Part shown: positions 25,747-28,042 of the stretch, one piece after another | Numbering within the stretch: the stretch's first letter is position 1 | Layout of the letters: every line of letters starts with the position of its first letter | IMG/VR virus record: IMGVR_UViG_3300032038_000069 | Coordinates: 4,184 to 68,183 of that record | Origin: a virus | Taxonomy: Duplodnaviria; Caudoviricetes | Reading direction: 5' to 3' (one strand) | DNA: 64,000 nt | Made by a program: the position numbers and the translations under genes | Notes under the pieces: generated by a model | What the model saw: only the letters and a program-made list of their open reading frames with translations | Told to the model about the DNA's origin: nothing | Database searches by the model: none

Positions 25747-25825
25747 ATTAATGGTTTGTTGCTAAGTTATTAATAATAAAAAGAAAAAAGAAAGGCAGGA
25801 CTAGTGTCCCACCTTCCTCACATAT

Positions 25826-25957
25826 CTAGAACAGGTCGAAGAAACCTTTACTGCCATCACCTAAGATAATGGCAATGAAGGCTATGACCATGATGAATGC
25901 AAAGAATATGGAGAGGAGATACTCAACTCTCTCATCATTGTAGCTATTTCTTGACAT
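25826..25957 (-). CDS. Small single-TM membrane protein (43 aa, not in ORF track)
   Basis: Hand-translated MSRNSYNDERVEYLLSIFFAFIMVIAFIAIILGDGSKGFFDLF; terminator-like sequence follows. Confidence 0.55.
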   Translation of the reverse strand: MSRNSYNDERVEYLLSIFFAFIMVIAFIAIILGDGSKGFFDLF

Positions 25958-26093
25958 GGCTTTGGGCTTTAAGATAGTTACTTGTGATTTCGCTGATAGG
26001 ATTGTCTAATTCATGATGGAAGGCAATGAATGTCTTCCCAAGGGACTCAAGCTCTTGCTTAATATCCCTTACTGCTTGTTGTTTTGCTGTCAT
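25944..26093 (-). CDS. Small hypothetical protein (start re-placed at MTAKQQ)
   Basis: The upstream part of the listed ORF is low-complexity intergenic sequence. Confidence 0.5.
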   Translation of the reverse strand: MTAKQQAVRDIKQELESLGKTFIAFHHELDNPISEITSNYLKAQSHVKK

Positions 26094-26224
26094 AATATGA
26101 AGATTTAAAGTGTGGATATATAGGTCAAAAATAAAAAAGCTTGGAGGTGGGAGGAGAAAGTACTTACTACTTCTCCCTCCACACTCCTTGCTCTTCAACT
26201 TAACCCTTTAAATAATAACTTTCA

Positions 26225-26257
26225 AGAAAAACCTGCCTATCTTCACAGACTGGCAGG
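26225..26257 (-). terminator. Intrinsic terminator with GUGA loop downstream of the tRNA/HNH locus
   Basis: CCTGCCAGTCT-GTGA-AGATAGGCAGG followed by TTTTTC. Confidence 0.75.
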
Positions 26258-26315
26258 GCAAACAATTAAAATGCAAAATGAAAACTATTTTCCTTAACAG
26301 GAACTGAGTGGTGAG

Positions 26316-26350
26316 TGGACCCTACAGGGCTTGAACCTGTGACCTTCTGA
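26316..26350 (-). pseudogene. 3' half of a split tRNA (outer tRNA)
   Basis: TCAGA-AGGTC-ACAGG TTCAAGC CCTGT-AGGGTCC-A; acceptor pairs with GGACCCT at 26874-26880. Confidence 0.88.
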
Positions 26351-26354
26351 TACA

Positions 26355-26756
26355 TTACCAATGAGATTTAATACCACCACATTTTCTGGAACAACAAGGA
26401 TTAGGATGAGTACTTAAGTTTTTTGGGTCAAATATGAATTCTTTACCACATACAGGGCAGATTCTTATTATCATTTCCTTATGTTTATGATCTTTTAATC
26501 TATTATAAGTACCAGAGATAACCTGAAGATTTTCTATTCTATCATCCATTTTGTCTCCATTAATGTGGTCAACATGGTCACTTTTAGGCACATCACAGCA
26601 ATAATAACTTGTATATAAGTATTTAGCATAAGACATGCTTGTTAGTGTTCCATCATTTCTTTTAAGAGTTGCTACTCTTCTGGGTTCTTTATTAGTATTG
26701 ATATATACTGTACAGAATCCCTTTTTTGCATAATAATTTGATATTGTTTGTTTCAT
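26355..26756 (-). CDS. HNH endonuclease with C-terminal Zn ribbon
   Basis: HVDHINGDKMDDRIENLQ; CPVC...CCSRKC; start re-placed at MKQTIS because the longer ORF runs through a tRNA. Confidence 0.88.
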   Translation of the reverse strand: MKQTISNYYAKKGFCTVYINTNKEPRRVATLKRNDGTLTSMSYAKYLYTSYYCCDVPKSDHVDHINGDKMDDRIENLQVISGTYNRLKDHKHKEMIIRICPVCGKEFIFDPKNLSTHPNPCCSRKCGGIKSHW

Positions 26757-26761
26757 AGTAG

Positions 26762-26835
26762 TAGGGAGTAAGGGACTTGAACCCCCAACCTTGAATGTAT
26801 AAGATTCCTGCGCTAACCAATTGCGCCAACTCCCC
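26762..26835 (-). tRNA. tRNA-Ile (anticodon TAT), nested in the split tRNA
   Basis: GGGGAGT/ACTCCCT acceptor, GCGC/GCGC D stem, GAAT-CTTATAC-ATTC anticodon arm, GGGGG-TTCAAGT-CCCTT T arm. Confidence 0.85.
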
Positions 26836-26848
26836 ACTTGGTAATATA

Positions 26849-26880
26849 TCAGCTTCTCTAACCAACTGAGATAAGGGTCC
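26849..26880 (-). pseudogene. 5' half of the split tRNA (outer tRNA)
   Basis: GGACCCT-TA-TCTC-AGTTGGTTA-GAGA-A-GCTGA: intact D arm and anticodon-stem 5' strand. Confidence 0.88.
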
Positions 26881-27151
26881 TGAATGCTATGTCAGCAAGT
26901 AGTGAAAAGTAACTATAAGCAATAGCAATAACCAAGACAAGAACCTGATGCAACAGACAAGAACTATATCTGCCTCCACAAATCAATGCTTCATAGGACA
27001 ATGTAGAAGTATTGTCGCATCAGACAAGGCACACAAAGTACCTTTATATGGTTTAACTTGCTTAAATACTAAAAAGTAAAACTGATCACACTTGCTGTTC
27101 AGGAAAGTTTTGGTACAATAACCTCAGTCTTTCCTTACATAGCAGTGAAGA

Positions 27152-28042
27152 CTATCTCTCCTTCTTACCCATCTGGGACACCTCATTGTAGATGTCTTTG
27201 AGGGAGTCGGGGATAATAATCTTCAGGGATTGTGCCTTGATAATCTGCTCGTCCTTATAAGCCTTTATCTTGGCCAGCAAGAGGTTCATCTGATTGGTAT
27301 AGACGGACATCTCATGCTCATATTTAAGGTTGGCATTACGCTCAGCCTCCTGTACTTTTGTCTCTACCTCATGCATGAGAGCATTCAGCTGTGCCTGATA
27401 CTCACGGTGCTTCTGCTGTAGCCTGAAATAGACAGCATCTACATCATCAGTAGTGACATTGGGGGTACGGGTATATACCACCATGTCACGGCCCTCACCT
27501 TGAGTAATGACAGGCTTGTCAATAATATCCTGAAGAGAGAGTCTCTCTTGAGAGAACTTACCATCAACATGGATATACTGGCCTATCTCTGCACATAGGG
27601 TGTTGAGCTGGTAGATGGTGTTACGTTGCTTAATGTTATAGGTAGCAATAACATCATCAGTATCAGGAGTATCCTCACGTACTGGACGTATAGGAAGTTC
27701 TAAGTCTAGAGCCTTAGCACAATCTTCTTCTGAGAGATTGTTAGCCTCTTTGATAAGACGGTCTTTGGCCTTAATAGCTTCCCTGAGCCATGCTATAAGG
27801 GATTTCAGCTTAGCCACATTCATCAAAGCATCTTCTACTTGAGAGAGCTCTTCAAGAGTGTTTCCTATGGAGAGAATCTTAGAGGTTCCTCCACTGAGAA
27901 GGGACATATCAGAGCGATAGAATTGTATGTTATTCAATGCTCTATCTAGTAACCTGTAGGCTTCTTTAGCCAGGTTGCAAATGTAGTTGGCAGAGGTGGT
28001 AGTTAAACCTACCTCGCCAAAAAAGATATTGTCTTTGTTCAT
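27152..28042 (-). CDS. Hypothetical coiled-coil protein (296 aa)
   Basis: Long ORF, helical C-terminus. Confidence 0.75.
   Translation of the reverse strand: MNKDNIFFGEVGLTTTSANYICNLAKEAYRLLDRALNNIQFYRSDMSLLSGGTSKILSIGNTLEELSQVEDALMNVAKLKSLIAWLREAIKAKDRLIKEANNLSEEDCAKALDLELPIRPVREDTPDTDDVIATYNIKQRNTIYQLNTLCAEIGQYIHVDGKFSQERLSLQDIIDKPVITQGEGRDMVVYTRTPNVTTDDVDAVYFRLQQKHREYQAQLNALMHEVETKVQEAERNANLKYEHEMSVYTNQMNLLLAKIKAYKDEQIIKAQSLKIIIPDSLKDIYNEVSQMGKKER

Follow-up and report, generated by a model that had tools for sequence, protein, structure and literature searches.

A phage tRNA gene split at its anticodon loop by a putative homing cassette of tRNA-Ile(UAU) and an HNH_3 endonuclease gene

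The DNA described here is a 64,000-nucleotide (nt) stretch of a virus of the Caudoviricetes (IMG/VR record IMGVR_UViG_3300032038_000069), hereafter the window, in which one tRNA gene is split by a second, complete tRNA gene together with an open reading frame (ORF) for an HNH endonuclease. The locus occupies positions 26316-26880, and all of its elements lie on the minus strand. Read along that strand, it opens with the 5' half of the outer tRNA (26880-26849; GGACCCT TA TCTC AGTTGGTTA GAGA A GCTGA), which comprises the acceptor 5' strand, the D arm, and the anticodon-stem 5' strand GCTGA. This is followed by the 5' strand of a closing helix (TATATTACCAA; 26838-26848), a GT spacer (26837-26836), and an inner, complete tRNA-Ile(UAU) of 75 nt with the loop CTTATAC (26761-26835), recognized by ARAGORN and by Rfam model RF00005 (60.4 bits, E 3.4e-12). 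The tetranucleotide TACT separates the inner tRNA from the HNH start codon, the ATG sitting 5 nt past the discriminator base, and the HNH_3 homing-endonuclease ORF (26355-26756; ATG at 26756, TAA at 26357-26355) encodes 133 amino acids plus the stop. The 3' strand of the closing helix (TTGGTAATGTA; 26351-26361) covers the final Trp codon of this ORF as well as its TAA stop, and it is followed directly by the outer 3' half (26350-26316; TCAGA AGGTC ACAGG TTCAAGC CCTGT AGGGTCC A), with the TCAGA anticodon-stem strand, the variable loop, the T arm, the acceptor 3' strand, and a discriminator A. The insert between the two outer anticodon-stem strands measures 498 nt; its non-coding part amounts to only about 106 nt, 75 of which are the inner tRNA.

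The two outer halves behave as parts of a single tRNA. Specifically, the acceptor 5' strand pairs at all seven positions with the acceptor 3' strand 500 nt downstream, and when the halves are joined by any 7-nt loop, ARAGORN calls a cloverleaf tRNA with an acceptor stem of 7/7 pairs, a D stem of 4/4, a T stem of 5/5, and an anticodon stem of 4/5, the mismatch being G27.A43. Random joins taken from the window and split likewise were called a tRNA once in 4000 trials. The split outer tRNA was undetected by ARAGORN in intron mode. Beyond the anticodon stem, 11 contiguous extra pairs, one of them G-U, continue the stem unbroken between 26848-26838 and 26361-26351, a run with a chance of about 3e-5 at the base composition of the window and a duplex energy of -11.2 kcal/mol; both the minimum free energy and the centroid folds of the 565 nt retain the outer acceptor, D, and T arms along with the long helix. 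A preliminary description, made from the letters of the window, had already placed the two halves, the helix strands, the inner tRNA, and the HNH ORF, and all of its coordinates were confirmed, as was the 11-bp helix with one G-U pair and a 3' strand lying over the HNH stop. Its statement that no anticodon loop is left in an outer tRNA with matching acceptor and D stems agrees with the joined cloverleaf, and its account of what the loop holds was borne out; the size it gave for that loop, ~480 nt, is corrected to 476 nt beyond the helix within the 498-nt insert.

The G27.A43 mismatch is common to the outer (26853/26346) and the inner (26809/26793) tRNA; it also occurs in several other outer frames and in the intact CAT tRNA of a related phage (L215; related loci and genomes are designated by L and G numbers).

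The product of the inserted ORF matches the Pfam family HNH_3 at 29.8 bits (cut-off 24.8; E 4.5e-7) and phrog_14913, annotated "HNH endonuclease," at E 5.7e-18. A DHINGD...N motif and a Cys4 cluster are invariant in 10 homologues, and a profile search of solved structures returned weak zinc-finger matches only. Because its sole occurrence in bacterial genomes is on a short (5-kb) contig of a metagenome-assembled genome, this HNH family is a phage family.

Relatives of the locus were gathered with the HNH protein in viral and metagenome contigs, and duplicates were removed. The HNH relatives are 45-77% identical to the protein of the window, with one additional fragment at 98%; in most of the other related loci, the identity is 52-77%. 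A further search for loci, made with the HNH alignment, was swamped by generic HNH matches and yielded two true relatives, both already collected. The resulting 57 distinct loci fall into 20 that are fully nested, 13 with an orphan 3' half or a truncated frame, and 24 without an outer half, in most of which a tRNA lies directly upstream of the HNH gene. The inner tRNA of complete nested copies is UAU, degenerate, or absent, and the tRNA of free-standing copies is either CAU or UAU. The ATG lies 2-5 nt past the inner tRNA in many nested copies and 12-29 nt past it in others, while the stop codon always lies 0-12 nt ahead of the outer anticodon-stem 3' strand. Since many members of the family that are without an outer frame keep an intact HNH ORF, the outer frame is not essential to the element.

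Several of these loci depart from the layout seen in the window. In L124 (2461-2940), a nested copy without an inner tRNA, the HNH ORF alone replaces the anticodon loop, and a 13-bp helix joins the start-codon region to the stop-codon region, with the ATG itself within the helix. The inner tRNA of L005 (2912-3445; identical to L119) has lost about 32 nt, including the anticodon, with the HNH gene and outer frame intact; the ~102-kb phage that carries it, whose genome looks complete, seems to be without either AUA decoder. L014 (2880-3140) keeps the outer frame and a 6-bp helix around an insert of 132 nt, consisting of a truncated inner tRNA and the last 30 HNH codons, a deletion derivative that shows how nested remnants without an ORF can arise. 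In L107, the flanks ~30 nt upstream of the inner tRNA (1973-2047) and past the stop (2457-2459) resemble a collapsed frame, in which GGGTCC...GGGCCC and AGGAGAT...ATCCCCT are pairable and the D, T, and anticodon arms are missing. The HNH ORF of L150 (150-200) and L103 (1440-1490) extends into the orphan 3' half, with a TAG stop inside the T stem. Finally, L098 has its inner tRNA and 3' frame in common with L095 and a terminator-like run in place of the 5' half, and the class with an orphan 3' half would fit repair from one side only or a 5' half that was lost afterward, as in L098.

The uninterrupted form of the outer gene was found among relatives of one nested group. L139 has an intact tRNA with the loop CTCATAA (anticodon CAT), to which the outer halves in the L008 group are identical, and an exact search for this intact stem-loop found it in 43 viral contigs, with flanks collinear with those of the nested loci and, within the stretches fetched, neither an HNH gene nearby nor a tRNA-Ile(UAU). 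When the L008 group is compared with L186, L188, and L197, the flanks align on both sides and CTCATAA is replaced by ~499 nt. Moreover, three complete cassette-free genomes contain no homologue of the inner tRNA, no HNH gene of this family, and no UAU tRNA, and each has a second CAT tRNA. Empty and filled alleles thus coexist in related phages, which is strongly supported, and a mobile cassette of tRNA-Ile(UAU) and HNH_3 very likely took the place of the 7-nt anticodon loop in an Ile2(CAU)-type phage tRNA gene. The preliminary description had proposed that the element may destroy an AUA-decoding tRNA and deliver a replacement, and the 43 contigs and three complete genomes support that proposal. 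For the phage of the window itself, neither a megablast search of GenBank phages with 20 kb of the window nor a search for loci related to a flanking 296-amino-acid protein found a match. The comparison with an uninterrupted allele that the preliminary description had called for therefore exists for the L008 group, where the allele reads CAT, and no such allele was found for the window's phage. One of the cassette-free phages, G005, carries a CTA tRNA of the amber suppressor type beside a tRNA call with a 4-base anticodon (L204:1580-1653; L210:2516-2589), a pair that hints at stop-codon recoding in that relative.

The identity of the outer tRNA can be approached through its intact relatives. 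The intact tRNA of the L215 phage has the window's anticodon stem, variable loop, and T arm around the loop CTCATAA, and CAT is the anticodon of all four intact tRNAs that are closest to the outer body of the window. For two representative CAT tRNAs, the best matches in E. coli were CAT genes labeled tRNA-Ile in RefSeq, at weak E values of 4e-3 to 7; on a CAT gene, this label means the lysidine type. The acceptor stem of the outer tRNA in the window has C4-G69 and C5-G68, which are determinants for TilS. By these similarities the outer gene is likely, but not proven, to be of the Ile2 type rather than a Met tRNA. The resemblance to tRNA-Ile2(CAU) pointed out in the preliminary description is accordingly upheld as to the anticodon of the intact relatives, and the choice between Ile2 and Met rests on similarity. 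A tmRNA-like reading of the outer body was rejected, since its arms are of the Ile2 type and an Ala identity pair is missing. In the long ORFs of the window, 26% of the Ile codons are ATA, which points to a demand for an AUA-decoding tRNA.

Several comparisons bear on mobility. Eight nested copies from one group have inserts that are 94-99.6% identical, compared with 67-93% for the 600-nt flanks, and because the insert is so much more alike than its surroundings, it is judged from these identities to be mobile. A second case is L149 (1-200, compared with window positions 26290-26489), in which 134 of the final 135 nt of the window's HNH gene recur; downstream of the HNH gene it has a different outer 3' half and unrelated DNA, and the contig ends inside the cassette, such that elements of this kind may break assemblies. 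In the HNH tree, nested loci are interspersed with free and partial ones, and well-supported branches force at least six changes of state. These are the marks of a homing element moving between diverged phages and between different target alleles. An integrase-type island or prophage was rejected: the insert consists of a tRNA and an HNH ORF only, with no integrase, and its flanks are the complementary halves of one tRNA with no repeat.

An insertion at the anticodon loop that is closed by an extended helix recalls group I and protein-spliced tRNA introns, and the intact outer cloverleaf would suit a true intron, whose removal and ligation would leave a working tRNA. Such an outcome is very improbable here, however, since the whole loop CTCATAA, including the anticodon, has been replaced and no consistent 7-nt loop can be rebuilt in any lineage. 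A group I intron was rejected: an Rfam scan of 25800-27400 at E values up to 10 gave the inner tRNA and noise only, and there is no room for a ribozyme. The helix is also continuous, with no bulge-helix-bulge (BHB) motif: that of the window runs for 16 bp without interruption, and those of other lineages have at most single-nt bulges at varying places, on which ground a BHB intron was likewise rejected. The phage record, which is 66% complete, has no match to PF01974, PF01139, or PF09414 (splicing endonuclease, RtcB, and RNA ligase); hosts such as Bacteroides possess RtcB, as the control row of the same search showed.

The 5' strands of the closing helix are unrelated between lineages (e.g., TATATTACCAA, TATTTAAATA, TTTTATTTC, TTATTACTA, and TTATTTTCAATGA), and each complements its own 3' partner, a role that in several lineages falls to the coding end of the HNH gene; in four of them, the 5' strand complementary to that coding end is TTGGTAA, TGGTAATAA, GAAATAAAA, and TCATTGGAAATAG, respectively. 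Strands from the same lineage pair with a mean energy of -5.1 kcal/mol versus -1.7 kcal/mol for cross-lineage combinations, and none of 20000 permutations reached the observed value. When the same energy test was applied to loci without outer halves, no excess complementarity was found (-4.15 vs -4.14). Covariation was also counted for the pairs of the window's structure in an alignment of 17 nested elements (A2), in which 83.6% of cells are paired versus 69% in shuffles, 20 of 32 pairs show changes in both partners, and covariation scores 0.374 versus 0.129 in shuffles (0/500) and at most 0.108 with the partners slid; the acceptor, D, and T stems are paired in 94%, 97%, and 100% of cases. The preliminary description had proposed to look for covariation in the extension helix, and its suggestion that the helix is maintained gains support from the lineage-specific complementarity. 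The complementarity of the helix is the part that needs selection, or else a mechanism that creates complementarity. If selected, the helix would predict that the missing 5' strand of L149 is complementary to TTGGTAATACA.

These data must be set against a simpler possibility, in which the DNA event is the same and the outer frame and helix have no function as RNA, the halves being a dead tRNA gene. The halves would then look intact through recent insertion and through refreshing as homology arms at each homing, and the helix would derive from the loop-edge pairs 32.38 and 33.37, an inverted repeat of the cassette, and AT-rich sequence. The insert is indeed far younger than its flanks, frames decay or vanish in many lineages with the HNH gene intact, and L014 has kept its frame despite losing most of the payload. 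In addition, the first pairs of the helix can be derived from T33, A37, and A38 of the old loop, and the cassette-side part of the window's helix is common to L149. What a dead gene would not lead one to expect is that helix sequences which are unrelated, and which stand in differing registers to the stop codon, should each pair with their own partner. The complementarity of the 5' strand to the HNH coding end in four lineages is hard to obtain without selection, and complementarity is absent where the outer halves are absent. On balance, we regard a functionless frame as a real but unlikely alternative.

Another possibility is that the helix is selected as a long-range processing stem (e.g., an RNase III site) or as a brake on HNH translation, rather than for the shape of a tRNA. 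As a brake, it would bury the region of the stop or the start codon and loop the mRNA, keeping a toxic nuclease low. RNA structure often holds down the translation of homing-endonuclease genes that lie in group I introns, and several features of the loci would suit a processing stem or a brake: the anticodon stem and its extension form a near-continuous duplex of 11-18 bp, the start codon of L124 lies within its helix, the ATG of nested copies stands 2-5 nt or, in a minority, 12-21 nt past the inner tRNA, leaving little or no free leader, and in L107 a long-range stem is all that remains, the D and T arms being absent. However, the length and bulges of the helix vary (3-13 contiguous pairs), which is atypical of a defined RNase III site, and the helix occurs only with both tRNA halves. 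This possibility is therefore considered improbable, and more so than a dead outer gene.

The best explanation overall combines a homing cassette at the DNA level with a tRNA-shaped frame at the RNA level, an account that we favor while putting it at a little under even chances. On the DNA side, the nuclease would presumably cut intact CAU alleles in or near the anticodon loop, and repair from a cassette-bearing genome would copy the cassette, with the tRNA halves and their flanks serving as homology arms. In the process, the resident, TilS-dependent AUA decoder would be destroyed and a lysidine-free UAU decoder would arrive with the cassette, whose own tRNA gene may be resistant to the nuclease through the change of C34 to T.

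On the RNA side, and more tentatively still, the outer halves and the helix would fold the primary transcript as a tRNA with a 16-bp anticodon-arm helix carrying the payload. The helix would let halves ~500 nt apart fold into a tRNA body, whose outer ends would be trimmed by RNase P and 3' processing. Excision of the inner tRNA by RNase P and RNase Z would leave the HNH mRNA with a leader of only 2-5 nt, and the 3' end of this mRNA would stay clamped in a two-piece, tRNA-like structure in which a 43-nt 5' fragment is annealed to the 3' half. By analogy, such a structure would act as a natural "tRNA scaffold," shielding the nuclease mRNA and setting its limits. Having lost its anticodon, the outer tRNA is itself unable to decode. 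The identity of a tRNA for isoleucyl-tRNA synthetase rests largely on the anticodon loop (PMC9976931), and therefore the outer body is unlikely to be charged with isoleucine.

A number of observations weigh against this combined account. Replacement of the destroyed decoder is evidently not obligatory, given the missing inner tRNA of L124 and the broken one of L005/L119, and the HNH gene is intact in 13 loci with a 3' half or a partial frame only, with 24 more having no frame at all. The cassette has spread recently, and covariation in the tRNA stems may predate its insertion; that of the acceptor, D, and T stems could have been inherited from differing intact target alleles rather than produced by selection after insertion. 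Some of the helix pairing (TTACCAA / TTGGTAA) may come from a short terminal inverted repeat that moves along with the cassette. Finally, exact searches of viral contigs with the 32- and 35-nt halves of the window gave no match to an empty allele of its own. It is doubtful, and about as probable as a dead outer gene, that these loci form a distinct, selected class of non-ribozyme, "tRNA-framed" mobile element that kills a lysidine-dependent AUA decoder, installs a UAU decoder made immune by its change of C34 to T, and keeps the cloverleaf and helix as a scaffold that hands its payload to RNase P and RNase Z and caps the mRNA with a two-piece, tRNA-like 3' end.

Around the element, a hairpin with the stem CCCTGCC...GGCAGG followed by TTTTT (26227-26258, minus strand), read from the sequence and folded, lies ~60 nt past the point where the outer tRNA ends; this hairpin may terminate transcription there, which would make the element a stand-alone transcription unit. 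With a loop of 14 nt, this hairpin was missed by a consensus terminator scan; promoter and terminator scans of 26050-27250 gave nothing above background, and no match to a Bacteroidota-type promoter pattern adjoins the element. In three of the related phage contigs, ARAGORN reports genes that resemble tmRNA and encode tag peptides, a few kb away from the cassette (L005:5913-6339, L008:5110-5462, and L012:4660-5038).

Several known systems share individual features with this element. The tRNA region of phage T5 has HNH enzymes. In phage T4, SegB is a free-standing homing endonuclease within a tRNA cluster (PMC2330249). As with SegB, a phage nuclease gene lies beside tRNA genes; SegB recognizes the DNA of a tRNA gene and spreads with the neighboring tRNA genes to phages that are without it, and the presence/absence polymorphism of such free-standing endonucleases is seen here too. 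SegB, however, lies between genes, recognizes a T-arm motif, and is a GIY-YIG enzyme, whereas the present cassette lies inside a tRNA gene, encodes an HNH_3 protein, and brings a replacement isoacceptor and a covarying helix. Group I introns of tRNA genes use the same type of target, including tRNA-Ile(CAU), and the same anticodon-loop site, and may carry homing-endonuclease genes. Unlike these introns, the cassette has no ribozyme core, its exons cannot be rejoined with an anticodon, and the host gene is killed rather than preserved.

In the protein-spliced introns of archaea and eukaryotes and the split tRNAs of Nanoarchaeum, the cloverleaf is kept, the stem is extended by a helix, and halves are joined by complementary extensions. 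The nested loci likewise keep a mature cloverleaf with an anticodon stem prolonged by a helix, but they have neither a BHB nor an anticodon, occur with a bacterial host, and come with no splicing endonuclease detected in the phage record. In the laboratory, placing an RNA within a tRNA's anticodon stem leads to its processing and stabilization in E. coli (PMC3753655). Such chimeras resemble the present arrangement in that a foreign RNA enters the anticodon arm through a closing helix; the scaffold chimera is processed as a tRNA and protected from nucleases. The scaffold, however, is a laboratory design for short, structured RNAs, whereas here the payload would be natural and would comprise a tRNA and a 400-nt mRNA. 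Finally, in fractured genes, a homing-endonuclease gene lies between the halves of a host gene that are rescued by split inteins (PMC2677866). There, as here, a homing-endonuclease gene splits its host gene and the halves still recognize each other; in fractured genes it is protein halves that are trans-spliced, while here RNA halves can pair, function is not restored, and a second, carried gene would compensate. No description of a tRNA gene split by a cassette of tRNA and HNH gene was found in the literature, and among the closest published systems none unites intron-free insertion into a tRNA gene with the carriage of a replacement isoacceptor and with a covarying helix that closes the insert.

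Taken as a whole, the nested locus would represent the entry of a homing endonuclease into an RNA gene of an essential type without an intron, the damage being offset by a carried substitute in a form of "kill and replace" at the level of the tRNA. It could explain how phages came by their rare UAU isoleucine tRNAs, namely as alleles that resist the nuclease and do not depend on TilS, and it would supply an engine of mobility for puzzling "tRNA inside tRNA" arrangements. Split tRNAs of this kind escape tRNA finders, and the nested layout recurs in many phages of the gut and rumen. The covarying helix suggests a natural use of the tRNA-scaffold principle, by which an mRNA may be processed or protected.

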